A stretch of 64,000 nt of DNA from Elusimicrobia bacterium GWC2_61_19 (GTDB taxonomy: Bacteria > Elusimicrobiota > Elusimicrobia > Elusimicrobiales > UBA9959). The position numbers were made by a program, and so were the translations under genes. The DNA lies in NCBI GenBank assembly GCA_001799795.1, contig MGUD01000016.1, forward strand, positions 2,105 through 66,104, read 5' to 3'. The notes under the pieces were generated by a model that worked only from the letters and a program-made list of their open reading frames with translations, searched no databases and was not told the DNA's origin. This document shows, one piece after another, positions 2,866 to 35,260 of the stretch; the stretch's first letter is position 1; every line of letters starts with the position of its first letter.

Positions 2866-2878
2866 GGGTCCTCCAGTT

Positions 2879-6275: not shown

Positions 6276-6293
6276 TTTATTCTCCGGCACGGA

Positions 6294-7136: not shown

Positions 7137-7161
7137 GATCTTAGGTGAAAATTGCGCCCAA

Positions 7162-7644
7162 CTATTTCGCCGTTTTCGCTTTTTCCACGGCGGAAAGCAC
7201 CTTCTCGTAGCCGGTGCAGCGGCAGAGGTTGCCGGCAAGTTCCAGTTTTATATCTTCAAGCGTGGCCTTGGGGTTACGGCGGAGCAGCGCCTCGGAGGCG
7301 ATTATCAGCCCGGGGGTGCAGAAACCGCACTGCACGGCGCCCTCGGCCATGAAAGTTTTTTGCAGGGGATGCAGGCCGCCATCCTTGCCTTTGATCCCCT
7401 CTATGGTAACGAGTTCTTTGCCGTGCAGCTGCACGGCCATCATCAGGCAGGAGTTGACGGCCAAGCCGTCCACCAGCACCATGCAGGCCCCGCACTCGCC
7501 CTCGCCGCAGCCTTCCTTGGTGCCCTTCAGCCCCAGGTCCTCGCGGATGAAATCAAGCAAAGAGCGGGAGGATGGTATCTCCCGCTCTACTTTGTGGCCG
7601 TTTACAAGGCAGGAAAGGCCGAAGGTGGCTGTTTTCGAAGTCAT
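7162..7644 (-). CDS. [2Fe-2S]-binding small subunit of Mo-hydroxylase, set B
   Basis: 160 aa. Cys clusters CGEGECGAC and CGFC...CRCTGY. ATG 7644 preceded by AAGGA. Confidence 0.9.
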   Translation of the reverse strand: MTSKTATFGLSCLVNGHKVEREIPSSRSLLDFIREDLGLKGTKEGCGEGECGACMVLVDGLAVNSCLMMAVQLHGKELVTIEGIKGKDGGLHPLQKTFMAEGAVQCGFCTPGLIIASEALLRRNPKATLEDIKLELAGNLCRCTGYEKVLSAVEKAKTAK

Positions 7645-8972: not shown

Positions 8973-11252
8973 CTAACCCTTTTTTATTTCATTCCAGATC
9001 TTTTCCGGCAGCAACGGCACCGATCTTACCCTGGCGCCGCAGGCGTTCTTGATCGCGTTGGCTACAGCCGGCGCTACGCCGATAAGCGGCACCTCACCCA
9101 TGCCTTTGGCCTTATAAGGCCCCTCGGCGTAGGGTTTCTCTATGAAAATTATATCATATTCGGGTTTATCTGCGGTAGTAGCTATGACGTAGTCGGTGAA
9201 ATTGGGGTTCACCATGATGCCGTTCTTGTAGACCAGGTTCTCGAACATGGCCCAGCTCATGCCCTGCAGGATGCCGCCCTGGGCCTGGCCCATGGCGAGC
9301 CGCGGGTTCACTATTTTACCCACGTCGTAGGCGGCCCAGATCTTTTTAACTTTGGCCACGCCCGTCCTGAGATCTACTTCCACCTCGGCCGCGTCGGCCG
9401 AATACGAGTAGATAACGTAGGCGTCGCCCTGGCCGTCCTCCATCTTGAAGGTGGTCCTGGGGGCGGCGTACCAGCCCTGCTCGCTCATCTTCTGGCGGCG
9501 GTCCCAGCAGCCGGCCGCCACTTTCTTAAAATCCACTACTTTGCCGCCCATCGAGAACAGGCCGCCGGCGGCCAGCATCGGCTTGGAGGCGTCCGCCCCC
9601 TCGGCGATGAGCATGTCGTAGGCGGTCTTAAAAACGCGCTCCCTGATAGGCGTGGCGGCCTCTATGATGGCGTTGCCGCTCATCAGCGTGGTGCGGCTGG
9701 CCACGGTGGGCCCGGAGTCCGGCACCTTGGAAGAGTCCACTTCCTCCACCCGCACGCTGTCGTACGGGGCGTTGAGCGTCTCCGCGGTTATCTGGGCCAG
9801 CACGGTCAGCGCGCCCTGCCCCATTTCGGTGTTCCCGACATTAACGGTAACCGAGGAATCTTTATAGACGTTCACAAAAGCGCCGGCCCTGTCCAGATAG
9901 CGGCCCTTGGCGCCCAGGCCCACGCCGTAGTAAGTGGCGGAAAAGCCGATCCCGGTAACCACGTCGCCCTGACGTTTCGGGCTAAGCACTTTCTTGTCCC
10001 AACCGGAACGGCGCTTCACGGCCTGCACCACTTCCTTTAGGCCGCAGGAGGAATTAAGTTTCTGGCCGGTAATGGTCTTATCGCCGGGCGCTAGCAGGTT
10101 GTTCAGGCGGAACTGCACCGGGTCCACCCCTACTTTTTCCGCGAGTTCGTCTATAAGCGATTCCTGCGCGAAGCAGATCTGCGGCTGGCCGAAGCCGCGG
10201 AAAGCGCCGCACGGCACTTTATTGGTGGCCGCGGCGTAAGTCTGTATATCCACGTTAGCTATTTTGTAGGGACCGGCGGCGTGCACCGTGCCGCGCCACA
10301 GCACTATAGGCGACAGCGTGGAGTACGCCCCGCCGTCCAGCACGTACTTAACGCGGCAGGCGGTGATGCGGCCGTTCTTGTCGGCGGCATAGGCCACCCT
10401 GGCCCAGCCGGGATGCCGCTTGGACATGCTCTGAAAATCTTCCTTGCGCCCGTAAATAAGCTTTACCGGGCGGCCTGTCTTGGCGGCGCACAGCGCGGCG
10501 TGCGAGGCCACCAGGGCGGGCACGTCTTCTTTGCCGCCGAAGCCGCCGCCGGTAACCGTCTGGAGTATTTTTACTTTATGATAGGGCAGGGCGAGCGCCG
10601 CCGCGACCGCGTCCAGCACGTAGAAAGGACACTGCGTGGAACTGTGCACGGTCATACCGCCGTCGGCTTCGGGCACGGCCACCGCGCCCTGCGTCTCGAG
10701 GTAGGCGTGCACCTGGTAATTGGTGGAGAATTCCCCCTCCACCGTAAAAGCGGCTTTTTCGAAAGCTTTATCCACGGCGCCTTTTTTTATGACGAAGCTG
10801 GAGACGATATTGTCTTTGCCGTAGATCTTTACCGAGCCCTTTTCCAAAGCTTTAAGCGGGTCCGCCACCGAAGGCAGTTCCTTGTACTTTATCTCGACCA
10901 GGGCGGCGGCTTTTTTGGCCGCGCGGGCGCTGTCGGCCACCACCAGGGCCACGGTCTCGCCGGCGAAGCGGGCTTCGCCCTGGGGCAGGAAAGGGTAATC
11001 CTGCATGACGACCGGCCACTTATTGACGCCTTTTATATCCTTGTATGTGACTAAAGTTACATAGCCAGGCACCCGGCGGGCGGCCTTATCGGAGATGGAG
11101 AGTATTTTAATCCTGGGCCGCGGGGAACGGACGGCGGCGGCGTGCAGCATACCGGCGAAGTCCCTGTCGGCCGCGTACTGCGCCCTGCCTGTCGCCTTGA
11201 TCAGCGCGTCCTTCCTCGGCAGCGATTTCCCGACGAATGAAAGTTTTTCCAT
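8973..11252 (-). CDS. Xanthine dehydrogenase-family molybdopterin-binding large subunit, set B
   Basis: 759 aa. Motifs GGGFGGKE, AFRGFGQPQ and GMGEVP, the positions equivalent to Glu802, Arg880 and Glu1261 of bovine XDH. No twin-arginine signal at the N-terminus (MEKLSFVGKSLPRKD). Confidence 0.9.
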   Translation of the reverse strand: MEKLSFVGKSLPRKDALIKATGRAQYAADRDFAGMLHAAAVRSPRPRIKILSISDKAARRVPGYVTLVTYKDIKGVNKWPVVMQDYPFLPQGEARFAGETVALVVADSARAAKKAAALVEIKYKELPSVADPLKALEKGSVKIYGKDNIVSSFVIKKGAVDKAFEKAAFTVEGEFSTNYQVHAYLETQGAVAVPEADGGMTVHSSTQCPFYVLDAVAAALALPYHKVKILQTVTGGGFGGKEDVPALVASHAALCAAKTGRPVKLIYGRKEDFQSMSKRHPGWARVAYAADKNGRITACRVKYVLDGGAYSTLSPIVLWRGTVHAAGPYKIANVDIQTYAAATNKVPCGAFRGFGQPQICFAQESLIDELAEKVGVDPVQFRLNNLLAPGDKTITGQKLNSSCGLKEVVQAVKRRSGWDKKVLSPKRQGDVVTGIGFSATYYGVGLGAKGRYLDRAGAFVNVYKDSSVTVNVGNTEMGQGALTVLAQITAETLNAPYDSVRVEEVDSSKVPDSGPTVASRTTLMSGNAIIEAATPIRERVFKTAYDMLIAEGADASKPMLAAGGLFSMGGKVVDFKKVAAGCWDRRQKMSEQGWYAAPRTTFKMEDGQGDAYVIYSYSADAAEVEVDLRTGVAKVKKIWAAYDVGKIVNPRLAMGQAQGGILQGMSWAMFENLVYKNGIMVNPNFTDYVIATTADKPEYDIIFIEKPYAEGPYKAKGMGEVPLIGVAPAVANAIKNACGARVRSVPLLPEKIWNEIKKG

Positions 11253-11262
11253 ATTGGGCCTC

Positions 11263-12075
11263 TTACTTGCGGCTGTGCGCGTCGCGCATATGCGCCCCGT
11301 CCCGCTTATAGTGCACCTTTATCATTTCGGCCAGCACGGAAACGGCTATTTCCCCCGGCGCCTTGCCGCCCAGGTTCAGCCCTATGGGCGAATGCACCCG
11401 CGCGTCCTTTAAGGGATAAAGCTTTTTCCCGGCGAGCAGGCGGAAGATCTCGGCCACCTTGTCCTTGCTGCCTATCATGCCGATGTAGGCCGCGTCCGTA
11501 CGCATCAGGGCTTCCAGGCATTCCCTGTCCAGGGCGTGCCCGCGCGTGACTATTACCGCGTAGGTATCTTTATCCACTCCGGCCGCGGCCACCGCTTTGT
11601 GCGGGGCCTCGTTTATTATCGTCAGCGCTCCGGGGAAGCGCCCGGCGTTGGCGAACTCTTCCCTGTCGTCGGCCACCAGGTAGGGATACCCCGCCAGGCG
11701 GCAGGCTTCGGCTATCTTGACGCCCACGTGGCCGCCGCCGAGTATCAGAACTTTCAAAGGATTCCTGTACACGTCGATGTAGACTTCCATATCCCCCATG
11801 CAGATCATGCCGGTATTGCCGCCGGGCTTCAGGTCGAAGACGAATTTACCGCCCTCGCCTTTTTTAAGGCAGGCAACGGCCTGTTTTATGGTGAGGGCCT
11901 CTATAGAGCCGCCGCCTACCGTGCCCTCTATGGCGCCGTCGGCGTACACCAGCATTTTGGCGCCGGCCTCGCGCGGGGTGGAGCCGCCCACGGAGATAAC
12001 TGTGACGAAAGCGGCGCTGCGGCCGGAATCGATGGCCTCGGAAAGCATTTTGATCAGGTTCTTGTTTTCATTCAT
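11263..12075 (-). CDS. xdhC: XdhC/CoxI-family Mo-cofactor insertion/maturation protein
   Basis: 270 aa. GGSTPREAGAKMLV N-domain and Rossmann-like ILGGGHVG C-domain, typical of XdhC. Immediately upstream of the set B large subunit. Confidence 0.85.
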   Translation of the reverse strand: MNENKNLIKMLSEAIDSGRSAAFVTVISVGGSTPREAGAKMLVYADGAIEGTVGGGSIEALTIKQAVACLKKGEGGKFVFDLKPGGNTGMICMGDMEVYIDVYRNPLKVLILGGGHVGVKIAEACRLAGYPYLVADDREEFANAGRFPGALTIINEAPHKAVAAAGVDKDTYAVIVTRGHALDRECLEALMRTDAAYIGMIGSKDKVAEIFRLLAGKKLYPLKDARVHSPIGLNLGGKAPGEIAVSVLAEMIKVHYKRDGAHMRDAHSRK

Positions 12076-12094
12076 GGCGTTTTATTTTACCAAT

Positions 12095-13636
12095 TTACAA
12101 TACTTTGTAGATCTCCACCGGTTCGGCCTTTCCCTTCAGCGCGGCCTTGCCCATGGCTTCGAATTTAAACGTTTCCCCGAGCGAACCGCGGGCCCTTTCC
12201 AGGGCGGGGCCGCTCACCAGGATATCCGTATTGAAGTCCTTGGTCCTGGATTCCAGCCGGGAGGCGATATTGACCGTGTCGCCGATGAAAGTGTACTCAA
12301 GGCGGGAGACGGTGCCGATATTGCCGCCCACCAGCTTGCCCGAGTGTATGCCTATGCCGAAATCCACCAGCCCGGGAGTTTTTCCCGCGGCGTTGAACTC
12401 GGCCAGGGCTTTCCTCATCCCTACCGCCGCGCGCACCGCGTCGGCCGCGTAGTCGTCCGAGCCCAGCAGCGGGGTATAGATCGCCATTACGGCGTCGCCG
12501 ATGAACTTGTTGATCACGCCGTGGTTGGCGGTGATAGGCGGGGTTATATAATGGAAATAATTATTAAGGAACTCCACCAGCATGGAGGCGCTCATCTTCT
12601 CGCTCAGGGGGGTAAAATTGCGGATGTCGCAGAACATCACCGCGGCTTCCATATCCTCGCCGCCCAGGTTCACTTTCTTGTTCTTTATCAGCTCCCGGGC
12701 GATCTCTATGGACAGGTACTTGCCGAAAGTGTCCTGCAGCGCCTCGCGCTCTTTCAGCCCGTCGACCATGTCGTTAAAACCCGCCTTCAGGTGCGCTATC
12801 TCGTCGGAGAAGAAGACATGCGTTTTAACGAACTCGCCGCCGGCCACGCGCCGCATCTTGCCGATGAGCCCGTCAAGCGGCACTTGTATGCCGTTATAGA
12901 CCGTGGAAACCCCCGTCAGGAGCAGCACGCCGCACAGGAAGAGCATGAGGCCGAAATCCCCGGCAAAAGTGTCCCACGGCACCCGGTTCAGGAAAAGCAG
13001 GTAGATCAGCACGAACGGGATAATGGCGAAACCTATGACGAGCGAGGAGATCTTCAGGTAGATGGGGATGGAGAACCCGGGCCGCAGGCTGGACAATTCC
13101 TCCGATGAGTAAAGACTGACCATGAGCTTCTTCTGTCTGGAAAGATGGGCGTCTATGTGGGCAATAAGCAGGGCGGCCTGCCCCGCGAAGGCGACACCCG
13201 ACGCCGCCCAGATCTGCCAGGGCAGAGCGCCGAACAGCATTATAGGTAAAGCCAGCGCCAGGCCCTGCGATATCACCAGCATCAGGAAAGCGTCGCGGTA
13301 GATGTTGCCCAGCCGCCTGCGGATCTTTGCCTTCAGTTTCTCGTCGGGTTTGCGGACATACAGATAGGCCGGCCTCGCCCAGACATAGACCATCAGGACC
13401 ATCACGATGAACGGCAGGCCTATATTCAAACCCTGATGACCGGGGCCCATGCCGATGTTCAGCGCCCCGCCTCCGATGTTGGGATCACCGGACAGGGCGA
13501 CCATGGTTATACGGTAGAAGGAAGAGTAGATGAACCCGAGGAATAGCGGGATGTAGAGGAGGCTGAAGAACTCTCTCAGCTTCTCTTTGCGCGCAGCTTT
13601 TTCAGGATCGCCGAACAATATGATGTCGCCTTTCAT
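12095..13636 (-). CDS. Membrane-bound HAMP-domain class III adenylate/guanylate cyclase
   Basis: Internal ATG 13636 chosen (MKGDIILFGDPEK...); it overlaps the stop of the upstream permease (ATGA). The 183-codon upstream extension in the ORF track is Arg/Gly-rich and lies inside the permease gene. Multiple TM segments, then cyclase motifs FCDIRNFTPLSE, KFIGDAVMA, GDTVNIASRLE. Confidence 0.85.
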   Translation of the reverse strand: MKGDIILFGDPEKAARKEKLREFFSLLYIPLFLGFIYSSFYRITMVALSGDPNIGGGALNIGMGPGHQGLNIGLPFIVMVLMVYVWARPAYLYVRKPDEKLKAKIRRRLGNIYRDAFLMLVISQGLALALPIMLFGALPWQIWAASGVAFAGQAALLIAHIDAHLSRQKKLMVSLYSSEELSSLRPGFSIPIYLKISSLVIGFAIIPFVLIYLLFLNRVPWDTFAGDFGLMLFLCGVLLLTGVSTVYNGIQVPLDGLIGKMRRVAGGEFVKTHVFFSDEIAHLKAGFNDMVDGLKEREALQDTFGKYLSIEIARELIKNKKVNLGGEDMEAAVMFCDIRNFTPLSEKMSASMLVEFLNNYFHYITPPITANHGVINKFIGDAVMAIYTPLLGSDDYAADAVRAAVGMRKALAEFNAAGKTPGLVDFGIGIHSGKLVGGNIGTVSRLEYTFIGDTVNIASRLESRTKDFNTDILVSGPALERARGSLGETFKFEAMGKAALKGKAEPVEIYKVL

Positions 13637-14871
13637 GTATACCTCAGGAAAACCCAGTATATTATGGCATTTATAAAAGTCAGCGGGATCCCGACGCGGG
13701 CGAACTCCATGAAGGTTATGGTCGCCCCGGTTTTTTTCTCCGCGGTCTGTATGATTATCACGTTGCTGGCCGCGCCCAGGATGAACAGGTTCCCCGCAAA
13801 AGTGGAGGCCGCCGCCAGCGCCATCAGTGCCGGCGTCCCGGCCCCGGCGTGCCGCAGCAGCGGCAGGTAAAGCGCCACCAGCGGCACATTGGAGATGAAC
13901 TGGCTCAGGCCCACGCTGATGACCATCACGGGCCCGAGCCCGGCGAGATCGGCGCCGGAGCGCGAGATAAGCCCCTGAAAAAAGCCGGTATCCCAGACGG
14001 CGCGCATCAGTACGAACATGCCGGCGAAAAAGGCCAGCGTGCTCCAGTCGGTCTTGCGCAGGATCTCGAAACGCCGGGGGCTGAAAAGAAGCCCCGGCGC
14101 GGCCGCGGCCAGCGCTATCCAGGTAAGCCGGAAATCCCAGGCGGGGTTGACGGCGACAAGCGCGATCTTGGCGGTTATCATGCACGCCAGCACCGCCGCG
14201 GTCAGGCGCGCCAGCCGCGCCAGCGCCTGGTCCTTTATCGGTTCCTGAGAATGCGTAAGGCGTACCTTCCTGAATTCCTGTCTGTAGAAGTACCGCAGGA
14301 GCAGGAAAACGAAACCCAGGTTGATGAGCGTGGGAACGGCGAGATATTTAAAAAAGGTAAGGAAAGGCGCGGCGATCTCCCCCTTAACGGCCACCAGCAG
14401 GTTCTGCGGGTTGCCGATGGGGCTCATCACGCTGCCGACGGTGACGGAGAAAGCCAGGGCCAGCAGCAGCGCCTTGGGGGAGAAGGCATGCTTGCGGGCC
14501 AGCAGCAGCGCCACCGGCGTGCCTATTATGGCCAGCGTATCGTTCATCAGGAAGGCGGAGGCGAGGCCCATGAAGAAGACCATTATCAGCAGCAGCCCCT
14601 CTTCGGTCTTTGCCCGCTTAAAGATCCCGAACTTGGCGTGGGCCAGCCAGCCGCTGAGTTCCAGCGTCTGCCCGGCGGCGAACATGCCGAACAGAAAAAG
14701 CATAACGTCCCGGTCCACGGCGTCCAGAGCGGCGGCCGGTCTTATGCCGCCGGTAAGCAGGACGGCGGCCGCGCCGGCGCACATCACCTGCCAGATCTGG
14801 AAGCGCAAACGCCCCACCTGCCGCACGGCGGTGAGGAGGAACACGACGGCAAGTATTATTATCGGCAGCAT
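13633..14871 (-). CDS. ArsB/NhaD-superfamily (CitMHS/SLC13-like) anion permease
   Basis: 412 aa, polytopic throughout. LMNDTLAIIGTPV and SPIGNPQNLLVA motifs are typical of this permease superfamily. Confidence 0.7.
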   Translation of the reverse strand: MLPIIILAVVFLLTAVRQVGRLRFQIWQVMCAGAAAVLLTGGIRPAAALDAVDRDVMLFLFGMFAAGQTLELSGWLAHAKFGIFKRAKTEEGLLLIMVFFMGLASAFLMNDTLAIIGTPVALLLARKHAFSPKALLLALAFSVTVGSVMSPIGNPQNLLVAVKGEIAAPFLTFFKYLAVPTLINLGFVFLLLRYFYRQEFRKVRLTHSQEPIKDQALARLARLTAAVLACMITAKIALVAVNPAWDFRLTWIALAAAAPGLLFSPRRFEILRKTDWSTLAFFAGMFVLMRAVWDTGFFQGLISRSGADLAGLGPVMVISVGLSQFISNVPLVALYLPLLRHAGAGTPALMALAAASTFAGNLFILGAASNVIIIQTAEKKTGATITFMEFARVGIPLTFINAIIYWVFLRYT

Positions 14872-14887: not shown

Positions 14888-15481
14888 CTAAACGAGGCCC
14901 GCGTAATCCTCCGGCGTGTCGAAGTCCCTGATTATCTCCGGGTCCTTCACTTCCAGGTCGGTTATCTTTACGGAGGGATGATGCGTCACCCAGTGCAGGC
15001 CCTTGTCCGGCGGTCCCTCGAAGCAGAGCGCCTTGTGCGCAGCCGGTATTATTATCGGGTGCCCCCGCTTCAGGCGCGCATCCGCGGCCCTGAAAGTGCG
15101 GGGAACAACTATGGACTCCTTGTTGGAAAGCCAGCAGTCCATGATCTTTTTGTAGGTTTCCGGGGCCACGGTGGGCTGGTCGGCCAGGCAGACCATAAAA
15201 CCTTCGGAGAAGTCCGACGCGGCCGCCAGGCCGCAGCGCAGGGAAGAAAGCTGGCCGTTCTCCGGCTTGGGATTGACCGCTACCTTTTCCCCCGCCGGCA
15301 CCCAGGCGGACAAGATTTCATGCGAGGCCCGCCCCAGCACCACCACGCGGTCCTCCACGCCGGCCGCCCTCAGGGCCGCGCAGACATGCTCGATAAAGGG
15401 CTTACCCCGCCATTGAAGCAGGGCTTTAGGGCGTCCCATCCTGGACGATTCTCCCGCCGCAAGTATTATCGCCGAGATCAT
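14888..15481 (-). CDS. mocA: MobA-like nucleotidyltransferase, probably molybdenum cofactor cytidylyltransferase (MocA-type)
   Basis: 197 aa. N-terminal ILAAGESSRMGRPKALL signature. The MCD cofactor made by MocA is the one used by XDH-family enzymes, which fits the neighbouring genes. Confidence 0.75.
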   Translation of the reverse strand: MISAIILAAGESSRMGRPKALLQWRGKPFIEHVCAALRAAGVEDRVVVLGRASHEILSAWVPAGEKVAVNPKPENGQLSSLRCGLAAASDFSEGFMVCLADQPTVAPETYKKIMDCWLSNKESIVVPRTFRAADARLKRGHPIIIPAAHKALCFEGPPDKGLHWVTHHPSVKITDLEVKDPEIIRDFDTPEDYAGLV

Positions 15482-15487
15482 AGCCGT

Positions 15488-16591
15488 TCAGTCCCCGAAA
15501 CTTATGCCCAGGTCGCGCGCCGTAACTATAGTGTCGCAGTCGGGCGGCACGGTCTTCATGCGGTTGGTCGCTTCCTTCAGCGGCACATAGCGCACCGTAG
15601 GCGGGTCCAGCGCTACCATCACACCGGTGCGGCCTTCCTCCAGCGCCCGCACCGCGGCCGCGCCGAAGCGCAGGGAGATGAGGCGGTCGAAAGTGGTGGG
15701 GCAGCCGCCGCGCAGCAGATGGCCCAGCACCACGGTGCGGCATTCCTTGCCCACCAGCGGCTCAAGCTCTTTTGCCACGCGCTCCCCGGCGCCGCCCAGC
15801 TTCTCGGCCCGGCCCAATTCCTTACCGACGACGGAAACGGAGCCGCCTTTGGGCATGGCACCCTCGGCCACCACGACGATGGCGTAGTGTTTGCCGCGCT
15901 TGGGTCTTTCTTTAAGAGCCGCGGCTACTTTGCCGATATCGTAAGGGATCTCGGGGATCAGGATGGCGTCGGCGTTGCCGGAAACCCCGGCGTTGAGCGC
16001 TATCCAGCCGGCGTAGCGGCCCATCACCTCCACCACCATCACCCGGCGGTGCGCGTCCGCGGTGGAGTGCAGGCGGTCCAGGCATTCGGTGGCGAAAGAG
16101 ACCGCCGTGTCGAAGCCGAAAGTGACCACCGTCTTGTCCAGGTCGTTGTCTATGGTCTTGGGCACGCCTATGGTGGGCAGGCCCTTTTCCGAAAGCACAT
16201 TGGCGATACCCAGCGAACCGTCGCCGCCCAGCGCCACCAGCGCGTCTATGCCGTTATGTTTAAAAGCCGCCATCAGTTCGTCCGTGCGGTCTTTCTCGTA
16301 CATTTTCCCGTCGGGGCCCAGGGTGGGATACTTAGTGGGATTGCCCTTATTGGTTGTGCCCAATATGGTGCCGCCCAAATGCGTTATGCCCCGCACCGAG
16401 CGCCGGTTCAGCGGGATCAGCCCGCCTTCCGGGTACTCCTCCGGCCTCAGCAGGCCGTTGTAGCCGTCCCTTATGCCGACGCACTCCATACCCCGGTTGA
16501 TGGCCGACACAACCACCGCCCGTATAACCGCGTTAAGCCCCGGCGCGTCCCCGCCGCCGGTATTAATGGCGATCTTCTTTATCTTCCCCAT
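15488..16591 (-). CDS. pfkA: 6-phosphofructokinase (phosphoryl donor not resolvable from sequence)
   Basis: 367 aa. GGGDAPGLNA, GGDGS and PKTIDNDL motifs. Gly at the E. coli 104 position points to an ATP-type enzyme, while Lys at the 124 position is as in PPi-type and group III enzymes. Confidence 0.9.
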   Translation of the reverse strand: MGKIKKIAINTGGGDAPGLNAVIRAVVVSAINRGMECVGIRDGYNGLLRPEEYPEGGLIPLNRRSVRGITHLGGTILGTTNKGNPTKYPTLGPDGKMYEKDRTDELMAAFKHNGIDALVALGGDGSLGIANVLSEKGLPTIGVPKTIDNDLDKTVVTFGFDTAVSFATECLDRLHSTADAHRRVMVVEVMGRYAGWIALNAGVSGNADAILIPEIPYDIGKVAAALKERPKRGKHYAIVVVAEGAMPKGGSVSVVGKELGRAEKLGGAGERVAKELEPLVGKECRTVVLGHLLRGGCPTTFDRLISLRFGAAAVRALEEGRTGVMVALDPPTVRYVPLKEATNRMKTVPPDCDTIVTARDLGISFGD

Positions 16592-16612
16592 ATATTCCCC
16601 CCTTCCCCTGTT

Positions 16613-17989
16613 TCAGCAGCCGGCTTTCCGGTACAGCGCGGCGGCGGCCTTGTTGGCGCGCTCGGCCAGCTTAAATTCGTCCACGTTCACCAGGCGGCCG
16701 TTCCTGACGACCACCTTGCCGTTGACTATGGTGTGCTTGGTGCGGTGGGAGGCGCCGCAGAACAGCAGCGAGGCCAGCGGGTCCGACTTGGACCCGGCGA
16801 AATCCAGGCCGCTCACGTCGAATATGGCGATATCGGCGGCTTTGCCCGGCGCTATGGAGCCAATGTCGCCGCGCCCCAGCACGGATGCGCCGCCGTGCGT
16901 GGCCAGCTTAAAGGCGTCCCGGGCGGGCATGGCTTCCACGCCCGCCTTCACGCGCTGCACCAGCATGGCCTGCCGCACTTCGCCCAGCATGTCCGAAGAA
17001 TCGTTGGAGGCGGAGCCGTCTACGGCCAGACCCACCGGCACGTTATGATCGAGGAACATCCGTATCGGCGCTATACCGGAACCCAGGCGCAGGTTGGAAC
17101 AGGGACAATGCGCCACGCCGGTGCGCGTTTTACCCATCTTTTTGGCTTCGGCCTCGTTGATATAGACGCAGTGGGCGAACCAGGCGTTGCCTTCCGACAC
17201 CCAGCCCACCGACTCCATGTATTCCAGCGGCCGCATCTTAAAAAGCTTTTTGCAGAACGCTTCTTCGTCGATGGTCTCGGCCAGGTGGGTATGCATGCGC
17301 ACGCCCCACTTCTTGGCCATTACCGCCGTGAGCTTAAGCAGTTCCGTGGTGACGGAGAAAGGCGAGCAGGGCGCCAGCGCCACGCGGGTCATGGCGAAGT
17401 CCCGCGCGTCGTGGAATTTATGCACCAGCCGCTCGCAGTCCTTCATTATGAAATCTTCCGTCTGCACCACGCTGTCCGGCGGCAGACCGCCCTTGGACCG
17501 GCCACGCGACATGGAGCCGCGCGTGGCGTGGAAGCGGATGCCTAATTCTTTGGCCGCCTCTATCTGCGTGTCTATAAAAAAACCGCTGTTCTGTTTGGGG
17601 AAAAGATAAAGATGGTCCGAGCTGGTGGTACAGCCGGTCAGCAGCAGCTCGCCCAGGCCCACCTGGGTGCTGGCGTAGATCGCCTCGGGGTTCACGTGCT
17701 TCCAGATGTCGTAGAGGTAGATCAGCCAGTCGAAGAGCTTGGCGTCCTGCACTTTAGGCAGGTTGCGGGTGAGGGTCTGGTACAGGTGGTGGTGGGTATT
17801 CACAAAACCGGGCAGCACCACGCAGCCCTTGGCGTCTATAACAGTATCGGCCTTCACTTTCAGATTTTTGCCGACCTTCCGGATCACCGGGCCTTCGATA
17901 TAGACATCGCCGCCTTTAATCTCGCGGCCCTGCCCGTCCATGGTGGCCAGCACCAGCGCGTTCTTTATTAAAAGGGATTTTTGTTTCAT
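16613..17989 (-). CDS. Amidohydrolase, 8-oxoguanine deaminase-like
   Basis: ATG 17989 chosen (MKQKSLLIKNALV...). Motifs NTHHHLYQTLTR, ALAPCSPFSV, HTHLAETIDE, HCPCSNLRLGSG and VDGSASND match, from memory, the Pseudomonas 8-oxoguanine deaminase family. Confidence 0.75.
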   Translation of the reverse strand: MKQKSLLIKNALVLATMDGQGREIKGGDVYIEGPVIRKVGKNLKVKADTVIDAKGCVVLPGFVNTHHHLYQTLTRNLPKVQDAKLFDWLIYLYDIWKHVNPEAIYASTQVGLGELLLTGCTTSSDHLYLFPKQNSGFFIDTQIEAAKELGIRFHATRGSMSRGRSKGGLPPDSVVQTEDFIMKDCERLVHKFHDARDFAMTRVALAPCSPFSVTTELLKLTAVMAKKWGVRMHTHLAETIDEEAFCKKLFKMRPLEYMESVGWVSEGNAWFAHCVYINEAEAKKMGKTRTGVAHCPCSNLRLGSGIAPIRMFLDHNVPVGLAVDGSASNDSSDMLGEVRQAMLVQRVKAGVEAMPARDAFKLATHGGASVLGRGDIGSIAPGKAADIAIFDVSGLDFAGSKSDPLASLLFCGASHRTKHTIVNGKVVVRNGRLVNVDEFKLAERANKAAAALYRKAGC

Positions 17990-18081
17990 CGTGGTCTCCG
18001 GAAATTTCAGTTCTTTAAATATTATAGTAAAATTAAAATTAGCACCGGTTTGCACGGATATTAAACAACTGGGGACGAATC
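17990..18081. promoter_or_regulatory. AT-rich divergent intergenic region between the 8-oxoG-deaminase-like gene and the DPD-like gene
   Basis: 92 bp, clearly AT-rich against the GC-rich background (ttctttaaatattatagtaaaattaaaatt). Contains TATAGT at 18023-18028. No convincing -35 element. Confidence 0.35.
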
Positions 18082-20538
18082 ATGAAAAATAAGATCACTT
18101 TCCTTTCCGACGCGCAGCTCAAGACCGAGGCCGAACGCTGCCTCTACTGCGAGGACAAGCCCTGCAAGACCGCCTGCCCGGCCGACTGCTCGCCGGCCGA
18201 CTTCATAATGGCCGTGCGCCAGATGGAGAAGTCCGACCTCAAGCGCTCGGCCGCCCTGATAATGGGCCACAACACTTTCGGCGGCGTCTGCGGCGCGGTC
18301 TGCCCCGACTGGTTCTGCGTAAAGGCCTGCTCCCGCAAACTCTTCGACAACCCCATCAACATACCGGCCGTACAGGCCGCCGTGGTGCAGAAGGCCAAAG
18401 AACTGGGCGTGATGCCCAAGTTCAGGAAGGCCAAACCCAACGGCAAGAAAGTGGCGGTAGTGGGCGCCGGCCCCGCGGGCTTCGCCGCCGCCGGCACCCT
18501 GGCCCAGCTCGGCTATAAAATAGATATTTTTGAAAAAGACAAAAAAGCCGGCGGCGCCTGCAACCTGATACCCGACAAGCGCTTCCCCAAAGAAGTGCTG
18601 CGCACCGAAATAGAATTCATAAAAACACTGGGAGACATTTCCATAAAGACCGGCGCGGCAGTAAAAGACCCGGCCGCCCTGCTTAAAACTTACGACGCCG
18701 TAATAGTTACGGCCGGCGTGGCCGAGCAGATAAAGCTGAATATCGAGGGAGAGAACCTGGGCGTGGAAGGCCTGGAATACCTGCGCAATTCCTCCAAATA
18801 CAAGGTGAAAGGCAGGAACGTGGCCGTTATCGGCGGCGGCGCGGTGGCGGCCGACTGCGCCATGAAGGCGCTGGAGCTGGGCGCGGCCAAAGCCGAGATC
18901 TTCACCCGCAAGAACATCGGCGACATACAGCTGCCCGAGCACGAGCTGCGCGACATCCTGAAGGCGGGCATCAACATCAACGCGAAGAGCCGCATCACCG
19001 CCATACTGAAAAGCGGTAAAGGCATAAAGATCGTGCGCCTGGACGACAAGGCAAAAGATATCCCCGGCACCGAACAGGTCCGCACCGACCTGAGCTTTGT
19101 GGTGCTGGCCATAAAGAACCTCCCTGTCTTCCAGGACAAAAAGCAGAAAGGCGTATTCCTGGCAGGCGACTGCCGCAACGGCGCGGCCACCGTGGTGGAG
19201 GGCGCGGCCTCGGGTAAGAACGCGGCCATGGAAGCCCACGCCTTCATGCAGGGCAAAAAAGCGCCCGCCATCCCCAACAACCTCAAGAGCACCGTTCTGC
19301 TGGCCGGCCGCGATATGCTGCCGGTTTCGTTGGAGACCGACTTCTTCGGCCGCAAACTGCGCTCGCCATTCATCATCTCCGCCTCTCCCCACTCCGACGG
19401 GTACGACCAGGTGAAGCGCGCCTACGAGGCGGGCTGGCCCGGCGTGGTTATGAAAACCGCCTTCGACGGGCTCGACATCCACATCCCGTCGGAATACATG
19501 GTGACCTTCACGGAGAACACCTACGGCAATTCCGATAACGTCTCCGGCCACGCGCTGGACCGCGTCTGCGGTGAAGTGGCGCGCCTGGTGAAGGAATACC
19601 CGGACCGCCTGACCGCGGCCTCCACCGGCGGGCCGGTGACCGGCAACGACGAAGCCGACAAGAAAGCCTGGCAGTCCAATACGCTCAAACTCGAGAAAGC
19701 CGGCGCCATGGCCATAGAATATTCCCTCTCCTGCCCCCAGGGCGGCGACGGCACCAAGGGCGACATCGTCTCCCAGGACCCGGAGCTGGCCGCCAAGATC
19801 ATAGACTGGGTTATGGAAGTGTCCAACCCCGAAGTGCCCAAGCTCTTCAAGCTGACCGGCGCGGTCACCGCCATCTGGCAGGTGGTCAACGCCATAAAGC
19901 AGGTTTACGCCAAGTACCCGCATAAGAAGGCCGGCATCACCCTGGCCAATTCTTTCCCGGCGCTGGCCTTCCGCCCGCGCCTGTCCGGCAAAGGCCGCTG
20001 GGAAGAAGGCATGGTGGTGGGCATGAGCGGCGAGGGCGTGGCCCCCATAAGCAACCTGACCATCGCCAAAGCCGTGGGCCTGGGCGTGCCGATCTCCGGC
20101 AACGGCGGGCCGATGGACTACAAAGCGGCCGCGCATTTCCTGGCGCTGGGCGCGAAGTCGGTGCAGTTCTGCACCGTGGTCATGAAGTACGGCTTCGGCG
20201 TGATAGACGAACTCAACTGGGGCCTCAGCCACATGCTGGAGGAGAAGGGCTACAAGTCGGTAGCGGAATTCACCGGCTGCGCCCTGCCCGGTCCTATAAC
20301 GAACTTCCCCGACCTCACGCCGGTAAAGAACATCCCGTCGGTAGACGCGGACCTCTGCCGCCATTGCGGCAACTGCGAGCGCTGCGGCTACCTGGCCGTA
20401 AAACTGGACGGGAAGAAAGTGCCGCAGTTCGATGCTTCTAAATGTATCGGCTGCTCGCTGTGCGTGAAGAAGTGCTTCTCCGGCGCGCTGAAGATGCGTA
20501 AGCGCACGGCCGCGGAACTTAAGGTTTGCCCGGACTAA
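18082..20538 (+). CDS. Single-chain dihydropyrimidine dehydrogenase-like flavoprotein (GltD/PreT-like N-half + DHODH/PreA-like TIM barrel + C-terminal 2x[4Fe-4S])
   Basis: 818 aa. N-terminal Cys-rich helical Fe-S region (CLYCEDKPCKTACP). Dinucleotide folds VAVVGAGPAGFAAA and VAVIGGGAVAADCA. PreA-like SPFIISASP...VVMKTAF. C-terminal CRHCGNCERC...CIGCSLCVKKC. Confidence 0.8.
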   Translation: MKNKITFLSDAQLKTEAERCLYCEDKPCKTACPADCSPADFIMAVRQMEKSDLKRSAALIMGHNTFGGVCGAVCPDWFCVKACSRKLFDNPINIPAVQAAVVQKAKELGVMPKFRKAKPNGKKVAVVGAGPAGFAAAGTLAQLGYKIDIFEKDKKAGGACNLIPDKRFPKEVLRTEIEFIKTLGDISIKTGAAVKDPAALLKTYDAVIVTAGVAEQIKLNIEGENLGVEGLEYLRNSSKYKVKGRNVAVIGGGAVAADCAMKALELGAAKAEIFTRKNIGDIQLPEHELRDILKAGININAKSRITAILKSGKGIKIVRLDDKAKDIPGTEQVRTDLSFVVLAIKNLPVFQDKKQKGVFLAGDCRNGAATVVEGAASGKNAAMEAHAFMQGKKAPAIPNNLKSTVLLAGRDMLPVSLETDFFGRKLRSPFIISASPHSDGYDQVKRAYEAGWPGVVMKTAFDGLDIHIPSEYMVTFTENTYGNSDNVSGHALDRVCGEVARLVKEYPDRLTAASTGGPVTGNDEADKKAWQSNTLKLEKAGAMAIEYSLSCPQGGDGTKGDIVSQDPELAAKIIDWVMEVSNPEVPKLFKLTGAVTAIWQVVNAIKQVYAKYPHKKAGITLANSFPALAFRPRLSGKGRWEEGMVVGMSGEGVAPISNLTIAKAVGLGVPISGNGGPMDYKAAAHFLALGAKSVQFCTVVMKYGFGVIDELNWGLSHMLEEKGYKSVAEFTGCALPGPITNFPDLTPVKNIPSVDADLCRHCGNCERCGYLAVKLDGKKVPQFDASKCIGCSLCVKKCFSGALKMRKRTAAELKVCPD

Positions 20539-20540
20539 CC

Positions 20541-21866
20541 ATGAAACATACCATACTGATAAAGAACGGCATCATAGCGACCCTGGGCGACAAGAACCGC
20601 GTGCTCACCGGCCACGCCCTGCTTATAGAGGACGGGCTGATAAAGAAGATCGGCCCCCAGAAGAGCTTCAAGGGCAAATATTCCAAGGTAATAGATGCCA
20701 AGAACAAACTGGTAATGCCGGGGTTCATAAACACCCACATGCATTTTTACAGCACCTTCGCGCGGGGCCTGGGCAAAGCCGCTCCGTCGCGCAACTTCAT
20801 GGAGATCCTCAACAACCTGTGGTGGCGACTGGACAAGAAGCTGACCAACGCGGATTCCTACTACAGCGCAGTGATCCCTCTCATCAATGCGGTGCGCAAG
20901 GGCACCACCACCCTGATAGACCACCACGCGAGCCCCTTCGCCATAGCCGGCTCGCTGGGCGCCGTGGCCAAGGCCGCCAATGAGACAGGCCTGCGCGCAG
21001 CCCTGTGTTATGAAGTCTCCGACCGCGACGGCAAGGAAAAAGCAAAAGAAGGCCTGGAGGAGAACACCGCTTTCATAACGGCTGTCGCCGCCAGCAAGGG
21101 CAACAATCTAAAGGCCATGTTCGGCCTGCACGCCTCTTTCACCATCTCCGACGAAACGCTGGAAGAAGCGGCCTACCGCGGCCACAAGCTGGGCGCCGGC
21201 TTCCACATTCACACGGCAGAGTCCCAGGCGGACCAGCTGCAATGCGAATCCCACCACAAGATACGCGTGGTGGAGCGCCTGCACGGTTTCGGCATACTGG
21301 GCCGCAAATCCATAGCGGCGCACTGCGTACACGTCAACGAAAAAGAGATCGAGATATTGAGGGAAACCGGCACGGCGGTGGTGCATAACCCGCAGTCCAA
21401 CGCCAATAATTCCGTCGGGATAGCCGATATCACCGGTATGATGGCCAAAGGCGTGCTGGTGGGCCTGGGCACCGACGCCATGACCGTCAACATGATGGAA
21501 GAAGTGCGCGCGGCGCTGTGGCTGCAGCACCTGAAGCGCGACCCCTCGCAGGGTTTCATGGAAGCGGCGCAGGCGCTGCTGGTGAACAACGCCAAGATAG
21601 CCAACCGCTATTTCACCGGCCTCGGGGAACTGAAAGCCGGCTTCGCCGCCGATATCGCCGTCATCGACTATATCCCCCCCACGCCCATGGACGCCTCCAA
21701 CTTCTACGGGCACCTTATATTCGGCATCAGCCAGAGCGCGGTGGACACCACCATAGCCGCCGGCCGGGTGCTGATGGAGAACAAAAAACTCAAGTTGGAT
21801 ATAGACGAAGAGGAAGTATCCCGCAAATCGGCGGAACTCGCTAAGAAACTCTGGAGCAGGTTCTAG
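20541..21866 (+). CDS. ssnA: SsnA-family amidohydrolase
   Basis: ATG 20541, 2 nt after the upstream stop. Motifs PGFINTHMHFYS, NLWWRLD, IDHHASP and HIHTAES match the E. coli SsnA sequence as I recall it. Confidence 0.8.
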   Translation: MKHTILIKNGIIATLGDKNRVLTGHALLIEDGLIKKIGPQKSFKGKYSKVIDAKNKLVMPGFINTHMHFYSTFARGLGKAAPSRNFMEILNNLWWRLDKKLTNADSYYSAVIPLINAVRKGTTTLIDHHASPFAIAGSLGAVAKAANETGLRAALCYEVSDRDGKEKAKEGLEENTAFITAVAASKGNNLKAMFGLHASFTISDETLEEAAYRGHKLGAGFHIHTAESQADQLQCESHHKIRVVERLHGFGILGRKSIAAHCVHVNEKEIEILRETGTAVVHNPQSNANNSVGIADITGMMAKGVLVGLGTDAMTVNMMEEVRAALWLQHLKRDPSQGFMEAAQALLVNNAKIANRYFTGLGELKAGFAADIAVIDYIPPTPMDASNFYGHLIFGISQSAVDTTIAAGRVLMENKKLKLDIDEEEVSRKSAELAKKLWSRF

Positions 21867-21885
21867 GAACGGATGAAATAACGAA

Positions 21886-21916
21886 TAAGCCGGCCCTCCG
21901 GGCCGGCTTATTTTTT
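21886..21916 (+). terminator. Intrinsic terminator after ssnA; the hairpin overlaps the stop codon of the convergent kinase gene
   Basis: Perfect 11-bp stem taagccggccc / gggccggctta with loop tcc, followed by tttttt (21911-21916). Confidence 0.7.
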
Positions 21917-24755: not shown

Positions 24756-24811
24756 AGGTGCAAAACCTCTTTATTTATGAGAAAATATATAGACACCCAA
24801 GGAGCGTGACC

Positions 24812-26746
24812 ATGGCGCAAAACATCGTTGATAAAATACTTGCCTCCCATTTAAAAGAGGGCGAATTCATAAAAGGCCGCGAGATCGGCATACGCGTCGA
24901 CCAGACCCTGACCCAGGACGCGACCGGCACCATGGCCTATCTGCAGTTCGAGGCGATGGGCCTGAAGGAAATTAAAACGGACCTGTCAGTTTCCTACGTG
25001 GACCACAACACCGTGCAGGTCGGTTTCGAGAACTCGGACGACCACAAATATCTCCAGACGGTAGCGGCCCGCTACGGCGTGGTCTACTCCCGCCCCGGCA
25101 ACGGCATCTGCCACCAGGTGCACCTGGAGCGCTTCGGCAAGCCCGGCACCACGCTGCTGGGCTCCGATTCCCACACCCCCACCGGCGGCGGCATAGGCCA
25201 GGTGGCCATAGGCGCAGGCGGCCTGGACGTGGCGGTGGCCATGGGCGGCGGACTGTTCTATACCGCGGCCCCCAAGGTCTACCTGGTAAAAATGTCCGGC
25301 GAGCTCGGCCCCTGGGCGACGGCCAAAGACGTGGTGCTCAAGATGCTGGAACTACTCACCACCAAGGGCAATGTGGGCGTTATGCTGGAATACGGCGGCC
25401 CCGGCGTAAAGACCCTTTCGGTGCCCCAGCGCGCCACCATAGCCAACATGGGCGCCGAGATGGGCGTGACCTGTTCCGTGTTCCCCTCCGACAATGTCAC
25501 CAAGAGATTCATGAAGGCCCAGGGCCGCGAGGCGGACTGGACAGAACTGAAAGCCGACCGCGGCGCGAAATACGACCGCGTGATAGGACTGAACCTTTCC
25601 GCCGTGGAGCCGATGGCCGCCTGCCCGCACAGCCCCGGCAGCGTCAAACCCGTTTCGGAACTGGAAGGCGGGCCGGTCGACCAGGTCTGCATCGGCTCCT
25701 GCACCAACTCCTCCTACCGCGACATGTTCACCGTGGCCGAGATCATGAAAGGCCGCAAGGTAGCGGCCAGCGTCAGCCTGGGCATAGCGCCCGGCTCGCG
25801 CCAGGTGCTGCAGATGATGGCCCGCAAAGGCGCCCTGGCCAACCTGCTGGACTCCGGCGCCCGCATCCTTGAGAGCGCCTGCGGCTTCTGCATAGGCAAC
25901 CACTTCTCGCCCAAGAGCGGCGGCGTCTCCCTGCGCACCTCCAACCGCAACTTCGAGGCCCGCAGCGGCACCGCCGACGCGCAGGTGTACCTGGTGAGCC
26001 CCGAAGTGGCCGCCGTGGCCGCCGTGACCGGCAAGTTCACCGACCCGCGCAAGGCCGGCATCCCCTACCCCGCCGTGAAAGAGCCGGGCGCCTTCCTGGT
26101 GGACGACAGCATGTTCATAAAGCCGTCGGCCGAACTTAAGGGCACGGAAGTTTTCCGCGGCCCCAACATCGGCGAGCCGCCCAAGAACGACAGGATGCCC
26201 GAGCGGCTGGGCGGCACCGTGATGATACACGTGGGCGACAAGATCACCACCGACCACATCATGCCCGCCGGCGCGCGGCTGAAGTACCGCTCCAACGTCC
26301 CGAAATACGCCCAGTACGTGTTCGAGAACGTGGACCCGACGTTCCACAAGCGCTGCCTGGAGAACAAGGCGGCCGGCGGCCATAACGTGATAGTGGCCGG
26401 CGAGTCCTACGGCCAGGGGTCCAGCCGCGAACACGCGGCCATGTGCCCCATGTACCTCGGCGTAAAAGCCGTGGTCGCCAAGTCTTTCGAGCGCATCCAC
26501 GCGGCCAATCTCATAAACTTCGGCATAGCGCCGCTCACATTCAAGAGCCCGGCCGATTACGACGGCATAAAGGCCGGCGATAAACTTACCTGCCCGGACT
26601 GGCGCGCCGCCGTTGCGGAAGGCCGGCCGGTGCTGCTGAAGAACGAGCGCACCGGCGCTTCCATAGAATGCGTCTGCGCCCTTTCGGGGCGCCAGAGGGC
26701 CATTCTTACGGCCGGCGGCCTGCTGAACCATACCACGGGCAAATAA
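24812..26746 (+). CDS. Aconitate hydratase (short, about 645-aa type)
   Basis: ATG 24812 preceded by AAGGAG (24799-24804). Motifs DQTLTQDATG, GSDSHTP, IGSCTNSS and NRNFEARSG. Confidence 0.9.
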   Translation: MAQNIVDKILASHLKEGEFIKGREIGIRVDQTLTQDATGTMAYLQFEAMGLKEIKTDLSVSYVDHNTVQVGFENSDDHKYLQTVAARYGVVYSRPGNGICHQVHLERFGKPGTTLLGSDSHTPTGGGIGQVAIGAGGLDVAVAMGGGLFYTAAPKVYLVKMSGELGPWATAKDVVLKMLELLTTKGNVGVMLEYGGPGVKTLSVPQRATIANMGAEMGVTCSVFPSDNVTKRFMKAQGREADWTELKADRGAKYDRVIGLNLSAVEPMAACPHSPGSVKPVSELEGGPVDQVCIGSCTNSSYRDMFTVAEIMKGRKVAASVSLGIAPGSRQVLQMMARKGALANLLDSGARILESACGFCIGNHFSPKSGGVSLRTSNRNFEARSGTADAQVYLVSPEVAAVAAVTGKFTDPRKAGIPYPAVKEPGAFLVDDSMFIKPSAELKGTEVFRGPNIGEPPKNDRMPERLGGTVMIHVGDKITTDHIMPAGARLKYRSNVPKYAQYVFENVDPTFHKRCLENKAAGGHNVIVAGESYGQGSSREHAAMCPMYLGVKAVVAKSFERIHAANLINFGIAPLTFKSPADYDGIKAGDKLTCPDWRAAVAEGRPVLLKNERTGASIECVCALSGRQRAILTAGGLLNHTTGK

Positions 26747-26758
26747 AAGGATATTACC

Positions 26759-35241: not shown

Positions 35242-35260
35242 AATTAATATCCTCCGTTGG

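Follow-up and report, generated by a model that had tools for sequence, protein, structure and literature searches.

In the 64,000-nucleotide stretch of the Elusimicrobia bacterium GWC2_61_19 genome analysed here (contig MGUD01000016.1; hereafter the window), two genes on the plus strand form an operon at positions 18082-21866, which encodes a flavoprotein of the dihydropyrimidine dehydrogenase (DPD) type followed by an SsnA amidohydrolase. We consider it likely that this operon encodes the second and third steps, reduction and ring opening, of the anaerobic urate/2,8-dioxopurine pathway, mainly because homologous pairs cluster with ygeY and ygeW genes in other genomes. The gene identities, the domain architecture and fold of the reductase, its conserved catalytic residues, and its linkage to SsnA and to pathway genes elsewhere are direct observations.

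The pathway was solved in 2025 (PMC12507026; bioRxiv 10.1101/2025.04.24.650524). XdhD-YgfM or the selenium-dependent DOPDH first reduces urate to 2,8-dioxopurine ('yanthine'), YgfK (DOPOR) reduces 2,8-dioxopurine in turn, and SsnA then opens the ring to give ureidomethyl-hydantoin; the conversion of 2,8-dioxopurine to ureidomethyl-hydantoin has been reported for YgfK and SsnA of Escherichia coli and for UacX and SsnA of Clostridioides difficile (PMC12507026; bioRxiv 10.1101/2025.04.24.650524). UacX is a PydA homologue (DHO_dh, PF01180) which carries flavin mononucleotide (FMN) and iron-sulphur (FeS) clusters, has no flavin adenine dinucleotide (FAD) domain, and works with SsnA in vitro (PMC12507026). 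A preliminary description of this DNA had proposed DPD-like reduction followed by ring opening by an amidohydrolase, in connection with the purine system of the ygeW-ygfT region, and the homologous clusters described below support that proposal. Its statement that the chemistry was only partly resolved has been overtaken by the two papers, which also give 2,8-dioxopurine, made from urate by XdhD or DOPDH, as the substrate in place of the urate or xanthine that it had suggested, and which show that UacX can stand in for YgfK.

The elements of the operon are as follows.
18082-20538, plus strand: DPD-type flavoprotein of 818 amino acids with a PreT-like N-terminal half and a PreA-like C-terminal half (Pfam domains)
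20541-21866, plus strand: SsnA amidohydrolase of 441 amino acids (NF005540 and TIGR03314, both above cut-offs)
21883-21913, no strand assigned: strong bidirectional intrinsic terminator at the end of the two-gene operon (14-bp stem with 8 G-C, then a T-run)

Domain analysis of the 818-amino-acid reductase revealed Fer4_20, Pyr_redox_2, DHO_dh and two C-terminal Fer4 domains (Pfam), with PF01180 at residues 417-719. The whole of E. coli PreT could be aligned with residues 16-391 (31.6% identity), and the whole of PreA with residues 412-805 (29.8% identity); the match to YgfK was limited to the PreT-like middle of that protein (reductase residues 23-382 versus YgfK residues 455-844, 26.5% identity). 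The protein was colinear with pig DPD over the N-terminal FeS, FAD, NADPH, FMN and C-terminal FeS regions (HMMER, E=6e-54). An AlphaFold (AF2) model built from 62 homologues (pLDDT 86.5, pTM 0.86) matched the pig DPD chains over the whole chain (Foldseek, TMq 0.80-0.82, E=7e-55), and the next-best matches, NfnI and GltD, spanned only the N-terminal half of the reductase. The alignments to PreT and PreA, the DPD fold and a YgfK model score of 134 bits versus a cut-off of 835 (TIGR03315) all agree with the earlier classification of the protein as a PreT+PreA-type fusion rather than a canonical YgfK. A protein of the metagenome-assembled genome (MAG) Elusimicrobia bacterium GWA2_61_42 is 96% identical to it.

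In the reductase, K458, N483, S550, the catalytic C551 and N623 correspond to K574, N609, S670, the catalytic C671 and N736 of pig DPD. Other positions are altered: DPD N668 is replaced by an invariant Ser548 and H673 by an invariant Gln553 in the reductase family, and T737 by Ser; the Asn equivalent to N668 is retained in E. coli PreA ('NFSCPQ'). The active-site mobile loop, SLSCPQGGDGTKGDIVSQ, includes Cys551, and 16 of its 18 residues are invariant among the 62 homologues, with T558 and K559 at least 90% conserved. Four sets of FeS-cluster Cys residues and the Rossmann motifs for FAD and NADPH are present. An Arg-Lys pair aligns with R364/K365 of pig DPD, which bind the 2'-phosphate of NADPH, and hints that NADPH may be the electron donor. 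The reductase is an enzyme of DPD architecture with a family-specific substrate pocket, and a member of neither the PreA nor the YgfK family.

The product of the second gene scored above the cut-offs of both SsnA models (NF005540, 540.1 bits versus 444; TIGR03314, 499.5 versus 455.5) and aligned with E. coli SsnA over the full length at 32.5% identity. Its metal and catalytic motifs (HxH, HxxE, His and Asp) are intact, and the segments THMHFY, HIHTAE, AAHCVH, GLGTD, NLWWRLD and HASP align with the E. coli protein. The dihydropyrimidinase model TIGR02033 gave 41 bits, at the N-terminus only. The reductase ends with a TAA at 20536-20538 and the ATG of ssnA lies at 20541, so that the gap of exactly 2 nt and the two-gene unit given in the preliminary description are both confirmed, and SsnA appears to be translationally coupled to the reductase. 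Such coupling fits the report that the reduction is detectable only when coupled to SsnA (PMC12507026).

Full-length homologues of the reductase were detected at no fewer than 565 loci when one genome per GTDB species was scanned, and 80 of these loci were retrieved and annotated by best match to E. coli and window reference proteins. Homologues occur in Elusimicrobia and, at 56-60% identity, in Ignavibacteria, Kapaibacteria, KSB1, Verrucomicrobia, Planctomycetota, Acidobacteriota, Bacillota, Chlorobiaceae and others. Among the 67 loci with enough downstream sequence to be evaluated, SsnA immediately follows the reductase in 49, is no more than 5 kb away in 8 others, and is not found nearby in 10. 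The pairing of reductase and SsnA is far from chance, with the adjacency repeated across several phyla. The neighbours across the 80 loci are SsnA, xanthine dehydrogenase (XDH), MocA, XdhC, YgeY, YgeW and adenine deaminase, and none of these loci has a pyrimidine-specific context, including dihydropyrimidinase and beta-ureidopropionase. Homologous pairs therefore accompany purine and Mo-hydroxylase genes and never recognisable pyrimidine genes, which is the outcome in favour of a purine role in the co-occurrence check proposed earlier.

The most informative loci are those in which the pair stands beside genes for later steps. In L052, L057, L078 and L087, the reductase heads a cluster of SsnA, YgeY, a thrC-like pyridoxal phosphate (PLP) enzyme, the Mo and 2Fe-2S subunits of an XDH, YgeW and a cysK-like PLP enzyme; a HyuA-like hydantoinase is present in L057, L078 and L087 and not in L052, and L052 also has a MocA-like gene. 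Partial versions of the YgeY/YgeW/XDH cluster were found in L066 and L085. Clusters of the pair with YgeY and YgeW, and with HyuA-like, XDH and MocA-like genes, occur in Ignavibacteria, Kapaibacteria, KSB1 and other Elusimicrobia. Three of the L052 proteins were compared with equivalog models, and all scored above the respective cut-offs (SsnA, 546 versus 444; YgeY, 564 versus 321, NF009555; YgeW, 637 versus 453, NF005538). In the Elusimicrobia loci L006 and L007, the order is YgeY, an ornithine transcarbamylase (OTCase)-family protein, carbamate kinase, two PLP enzymes, reductase and SsnA, where YgeY is 49% identical to that of E. coli and the OTCase-family protein is 40% identical to YgeW and below the YgeW equivalog cut-off.

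As a separate observation, the complete clusters of other phyla have no YgeX equivalog, and the thrC-like (384-412 amino acids) and cysK-like (481-488 amino acids) PLP enzymes are conserved there (15032-16186 and 20089-21534 in L052; 7138-8376 and 8405-9871 in L007; also in L057, L078 and L087). The two PLP enzymes may represent an alternative pathway end.

Like E. coli YgfK, the window reductase lies directly upstream of SsnA with MocA, XDH-family enzymes and a purine deaminase nearby, the proposed reaction is the same as that of YgfK (NADPH:2,8-dioxopurine oxidoreductase), and the two enzymes have in common a PreT/GltD-like NAD(P)H-FAD-FeS module; unlike YgfK, it has a canonical PreA-type FMN barrel and a C-terminal two-cluster ferredoxin domain. 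In C. difficile, a PF01180 FMN-domain protein is likewise encoded beside SsnA (PMC12507026), and since UacX is a PydA homologue, a DPD-type FMN domain has a precedent in 2,8-dioxopurine chemistry. UacX as described is set apart by having no FAD/NAD(P)H domain and is probably ferredoxin-dependent, whereas the window protein has a complete PreT-like FAD/NAD(P)H/FeS half at its N-terminus and should be self-sufficient with pyridine nucleotide. Pig DPD (PDB 1H7W/1GTH) has the same five-domain order, whole-chain fold and catalytic Cys in an 'LSCP' motif, but the window protein is only 23-24% identical to it, is 200 amino acids shorter, and has a rewritten active-site loop. Identity to E. coli PreT/PreA is about 30%, and in contrast to both of these pyrimidine systems the partner and the context of the window reductase are purine genes. 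The SsnA network of PMC12507026 lists Elusimicrobiota, with neighbours coloured by 'UacX (PF01180)', and a full-length PreT+PreA-type fusion is not described in the text or supplement of that paper.

The operon belongs to a five-gene interval at 14888-21866, in which three genes on the minus strand diverge from the reductase and SsnA genes on the plus strand. The other elements of this interval are listed here.
14888-15481, minus strand: MocA-like nucleotidyltransferase of the MobA family (PF12804, 117 bits; TIGR03310, 141.7)
15488-16591, minus strand: ATP-dependent phosphofructokinase (PFK) (PF00365, 328 bits)
16613-17989, minus strand: amidohydrolase of the 8-oxoguanine/isocytosine deaminase family, 458 amino acids (NF006055, 646 bits versus a cut-off of 532)
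17990-18081, no strand assigned: AT-rich divergent intergenic region of 92 bp (read from the sequence)
The G+C content of the window is about 61%, and real genes are marked by a G+C content at third codon positions (GC3) of about 0.8. All genes named in the preliminary description were found where it had placed them, in frames bearing this coding signature of the genome; its title had left out the PFK gene.

With the deaminase ATG at 17989, the 92-bp divergent region presumably carries promoters for both directions. A simple scan of it found no sigma-70 consensus promoter. The E. coli cluster includes the sigma-54 activator YgeV, for which reason a sigma-54 promoter was also considered; the candidate TAGCACCGGTTTGCA was rejected, as it has an incorrect -24 base and a spacer 1 nt short.

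The deaminase was closest to PDB 7WW2 (52% identity over 447 positions, E=1.8e-151) and 3HPA (E=5e-150), with weaker matches to triazine hydrolase (about 1e-86), isoxanthopterin deaminase 2PAJ (2e-73) and guanine deaminase (9e-29). Its nearest relatives are thus 8-oxoguanine deaminases and not triazine hydrolases or guanine deaminases, the point on which the preliminary description had made its assignment depend. By identity, NF006055 score and conserved residues, it resembles both the 8-oxoguanine deaminase Pa0142 (3HPA) and the isocytosine deaminase VCZ (7WW2), and Q73, F88, W90, F210, E237, H271 and D322, the residues studied in VCZ, are all kept. The deaminase gene accompanies the reductase gene in 39 of the 80 loci, including L004 and L046, where no SsnA is nearby. 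We know of no described conserved linkage of the characterised 8-oxoguanine/isocytosine deaminases to a dioxopurine-type reductase and MocA. The family accepts 8-oxoguanine, guanine, isocytosine and ammeline (PMC10481359), and on the simplest reading the enzyme would serve as a feeder step, from 8-oxoguanine to urate or from guanine to xanthine. Its identification as HutF (formiminoglutamate deiminase), considered in view of the nearby histidine-utilisation (hut) genes, was rejected, since the HutF models gave 130-158 bits versus cut-offs of 362-413.

The MocA-like protein is below the MocA equivalog cut-off (TIGR03310, 141.7 versus 186.45), while its MobA-like domain is clear. The gene accompanies the deaminase and XdhC in most Elusimicrobia loci, and we propose that it functions in cytidylylation of the molybdenum cofactor for the XDH-family enzymes. 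PFK was ruled out as a member of the module, and is best regarded as a passenger because it is missing from the position between MocA and the deaminase in five related loci (L030, L032, L041, L049 and L051).

The operon is embedded in a supercluster of purine and Mo-hydroxylase genes. To the left of the operon, the order is Mo-hydroxylase A, two TldD/PmbA-like genes, Mo-hydroxylase B, XdhC, a cyclase, a transporter of the DASS/CitMHS type, and then the genes of the 14888-21866 interval; to the right of SsnA stand a hybrid histidine kinase, aconitase, ATP-citrate lyase and a complete histidine-utilisation set. In the window lineage the order XDH-XdhC-(cyclase, transporter)-MocA-(PFK)-deaminase, with reductase-SsnA divergent, is conserved, and L043 has the reductase, SsnA, deaminase, MocA, XdhC and XDH genes in a single orientation. 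The Mo-hydroxylase genes of the window are the following.
3-1466, minus strand: Mo-hydroxylase A, molybdopterin subunit, 769 amino acids in full, cut by the window start (likeness to XdhD)
1536-2045, minus strand: Mo-hydroxylase A, 2Fe-2S subunit (Fer2, Fer2_2)
2056-2889, minus strand: Mo-hydroxylase A, FAD subunit, YgfM/XdhB-like (FAD_binding_5; 25% identity to E. coli YgfM)
6294-7238, minus strand: Mo-hydroxylase B, FAD subunit, XdhB-like (FAD_binding_5, CO_deh_flav_C; NF043083, 164 bits)
7162-7644, minus strand: Mo-hydroxylase B, 2Fe-2S subunit (Fer2, Fer2_2; NF043084, 194 bits)
8973-11252, minus strand: Mo-hydroxylase B, molybdopterin subunit, 759 amino acids (pucD, 538 bits; XdhA, 487 bits; all below cut-offs)
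11263-12075, minus strand: XdhC-type Mo-hydroxylase maturation factor (NF045664, 245 bits; TIGR02964, 134 bits; both below cut-offs)

The Mo subunit of Mo-hydroxylase A is 36.7% identical to E. coli XdhD and has the XdhD-specific insertion with Glu606 ('AMGEGR' versus 'AIGEGK'), which is lacking in XdhA and in Mo-hydroxylase B. Glu606 of XdhD has been tied to the formation of 2,8-dioxopurine (PMC12507026), and Mo-hydroxylase A is a candidate XdhD-type urate/2,8-dioxopurine enzyme. The full-length subunit was read on a 109-kb groundwater metagenome contig, of which the window is the identical segment at positions 25927-89926 and which provides flanks of 8.5 kb on the left and 9.5 kb on the right; it scored below the curated cut-offs (NF043082, 712 bits versus 780; TIGR03313, 604 bits). 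The Mo subunit of Mo-hydroxylase B is about 35% identical to the Mo subunits within the complete clusters of other phyla.

From these comparisons we infer the substrate, the electron donor, the Mo-enzyme step and the product fate in the window organism. Mo-hydroxylase A, with its XdhD-type Glu insertion, would make 2,8-dioxopurine from urate. 8-Oxoguanine or guanine would be turned into urate or xanthine by the divergently encoded deaminase, and maturation of the Mo cofactor would fall to the MocA-like protein and XdhC. In the reductase, the FAD of the PreT-like half would be reduced by NAD(P)H. The electrons would then travel to the FMN of the PreA-like barrel through four [4Fe-4S] clusters, two near each terminus, and probably from one subunit of a dimer to the other, as happens in DPD. 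The FMN hydride would then be transferred to C6 of 2,8-dioxopurine, with Cys551 protonating C5. SsnA would hydrolyse the resulting cyclic amidine by Zn chemistry of the cytosine deaminase type to ureidomethyl-hydantoin or 5-ureido-dihydrouracil, and this hydrolysis would draw the unfavourable reduction forward.

Several observations weigh against assigning the operon to the 2,8-dioxopurine pathway. Besides the low YgfK score given above, the reductase is below the PreA equivalog cut-off (NF006183, 204 bits versus 335), and it belongs to neither of the characterised reductase families. The function of the fused family is assigned from context and homology. The obligatory partner of the reductase is not fully settled either, since 10 of the 67 evaluable loci have no SsnA nearby and in L004 and L046 the reductase is followed by an 8-oxoguanine deaminase homologue. 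The remaining loci of this kind have various neighbours, namely XDH subunits (L059, L072), adenine deaminase and a PLP enzyme (L074), YgeX-like or other PLP enzymes (L076, L077) and unrelated genes (L061, L073, L083), and L062 has nothing recognisable in its roughly 1.6 kb of downstream sequence. Finally, neither the window nor its 8.5-kb left and 9.5-kb right flanks contain HyuA, YgeW, YgeY, YgeX or carbamate kinase, and the YgeY homologues among the matches listed include other Elusimicrobia MAGs and none of the MAGs closest to the window. The pathway may be incomplete or differently completed in the window organism.

L004 and L046 themselves represent one Elusimicrobia lineage (locus positions 10001-14652), in which the reductase is followed by the deaminase homologue, 69% identical to that of the window, and by MocA, with no SsnA within 10 kb. 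Either SsnA is located elsewhere in that lineage, or the deaminase-family enzyme partners the reductase there.

The absence of the downstream partners was already part of the preliminary description and was confirmed here: tblastn with the E. coli proteins found no match to YgeW, YgeX, YgeY or YqeA in the window, and HyuA gave two 60-residue N-terminal matches to the two amidohydrolase genes and no homologue. This absence is no evidence for the variant route then suggested, as the same pair adjoins YgeY and YgeW in other phyla. Moreover, in the MAG RIFOXYA12_FULL_51_18, locus L035 shows the synteny of the window and encodes a reductase 78-79% identical to that of the window, and the same MAG carries YgeY beside YgeW (66.7% identical to that of E. 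coli) on a different contig. Because of this same-synteny MAG, the missing partners are not in themselves a sign of a different route, and they probably lie elsewhere in the genome of the window organism. The high-GC Elusimicrobia YgeY/YgeW/carbamate-kinase locus L092 has a LysRS-FtsX-ABC block in common with the window, but says little on the window genome because its proteins are only about 50-55% identical.

The changes at the substrate contacts that are fixed in the family relative to DPD and PreA (N668 to S548, H673 to Q553), together with the rewritten loop, raise the alternative that the pair acts on another oxidised purine or heterocycle, such as urate, xanthine, 6,8-dioxopurine or the product of the deaminase, as a distinct entry or branch in Elusimicrobia. 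The linkage of the Elusimicrobia reductase to the deaminase and MocA, which is about as tight as that to SsnA and persists in L004 and L046, is in line with it, as is the failure to see downstream pathway genes in about 82 kb around the pair. We nevertheless regard this alternative as unlikely: homologues that are 57-60% identical and have an identical active-site motif head clusters with YgeY, YgeW and HyuA-like genes, YgfK selects 2,8-dioxopurine over its isomers (bioRxiv 10.1101/2025.04.24.650524), and one of the Mo enzymes encoded in the window is XdhD-like and has a Glu606-type insertion.

An ordinary reductive pyrimidine pathway, with a single-chain DPD acting on uracil or thymine and the amidohydrolase as dihydropyrimidinase, would account for the whole-chain DPD fold and for the retention of the catalytic Cys and two of the three Asn residues, and many family members are publicly annotated as 'dihydropyrimidine dehydrogenase'. 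It is nonetheless highly improbable in view of the partner, which is an SsnA of the cytosine/guanine deaminase branch and matches the dihydropyrimidinase model weakly and at its N-terminus, of the PreA equivalog score, of the invariant Ser in place of an Asn that DPD (N668) and E. coli PreA have, and of the neighbours, which are XDH, MocA, XdhC, adenine deaminase, YgeY and YgeW, with no locus showing a pyrimidine-specific context. Slimmer still, and close to negligible, is the chance that the pair serves the neighbouring histidine/imidazole catabolism by acting on an imidazolone or hydantoin intermediate. Genes for SIS, HAD, HutI-like, YajQ, urocanase and HAL proteins do follow SsnA in the window lineage, after inserted genes in the window itself, which also has FTCD; but the hut linkage is limited to close relatives, other phyla place the pair with purine-pathway genes, the hut route of the window is complete without the pair, and the histidine kinase, aconitase and ATP-citrate lyase stand between the two in the window.

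Under the preferred assignment to the 2,8-dioxopurine pathway, what is new here is likely to be the complete DPD-type fusion as a third architecture of 2,8-dioxopurine reductase beside YgfK and UacX. The fusion occurs widely among environmental phyla, and its Elusimicrobia versions are tied to the 8-oxoguanine-family deaminase. A broader scenario, which we put forward as doubtful, is that the form self-sufficient with pyridine nucleotide prevails outside guts (in groundwater, sediment and peat, in Elusimicrobia, Ignavibacteria, Verrucomicrobia, KSB1 and others) and has been rewired in the window lineage with the deaminase and two XDH-type enzymes and without HyuA, YgeW, YgeY or YgeX as neighbours. 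If true, such a rewired module could mean a distinct entry from oxidised guanine or a lower pathway that is completed differently. If the preferred assignment holds, evolution has arrived on at least three occasions, starting from related parts, at a solution to the purine dearomatisation step of anaerobic urate breakdown (YgfK, the ferredoxin-type UacX and the DPD-type fusion), and a pathway described from the gut would be common in free-living anaerobes of many phyla, which BLAST searches with YgfK as the marker would miss. For the engineering of urate-degrading probiotics, a reductase that is NAD(P)H-linked and consists of one polypeptide could offer a simpler component. The reductase-SsnA finding opens no new mechanism and settles no long-standing question.

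Further features were observed around the Mo-hydroxylase genes. Two long TldD/PmbA-like proteins are encoded on the minus strand between the two Mo-hydroxylase operons, at 2879-4588 (569 amino acids) and 4593-6290 (565 amino acids); only a C-terminal PmbA_TldD domain was recognised in them, and the arrangement of the pair is repeated in L023 and L051. A CsgG/FlgO-like (lipoprotein-type) gene of 432 amino acids at 7660-8958 on the minus strand lies within operon B between the Mo and 2Fe-2S subunits, and its position is kept in L011, L023, L030, L032, L033, L042, L043 and L051, although it is an odd partner for a cytoplasmic Mo-hydroxylase. Adenylate/guanylate-cyclase-domain proteins are encoded at 12095-14185 and 39790-41943, both on the minus strand; the former sits between XdhC and the transporter, a position kept in relatives, and the latter has a CHASE2 sensor.

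In the remainder of the window, the complete hut route comprises HAL, urocanase, a HutI-like amidohydrolase and formiminotransferase-cyclodeaminase (FTCD), on the minus strand at 33494-38457 and 47783-49273, and hut genes stand directly after SsnA in the relatives L002, L011, L030 and L041. Aconitase followed by both subunits of ATP-citrate lyase (Citrate_bind/ATP-grasp and CoA-ligase/citrate-synthase domains) at 24758-29856 on the plus strand suggests that this Elusimicrobia lineage has a reductive tricarboxylic acid cycle or cleaves citrate. EtfA with an N-terminal ferredoxin domain, EtfB and a 546-amino-acid acyl-CoA dehydrogenase are grouped at 44067-47752 on the minus strand, which looks like an electron-bifurcating module of the Etf/Bcd type. 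An McsB-type ATP:guanido phosphotransferase (protein arginine kinase) is encoded at 53893-54945 on the minus strand, together with a small McsA-like UVR-domain partner at 54938-55456.

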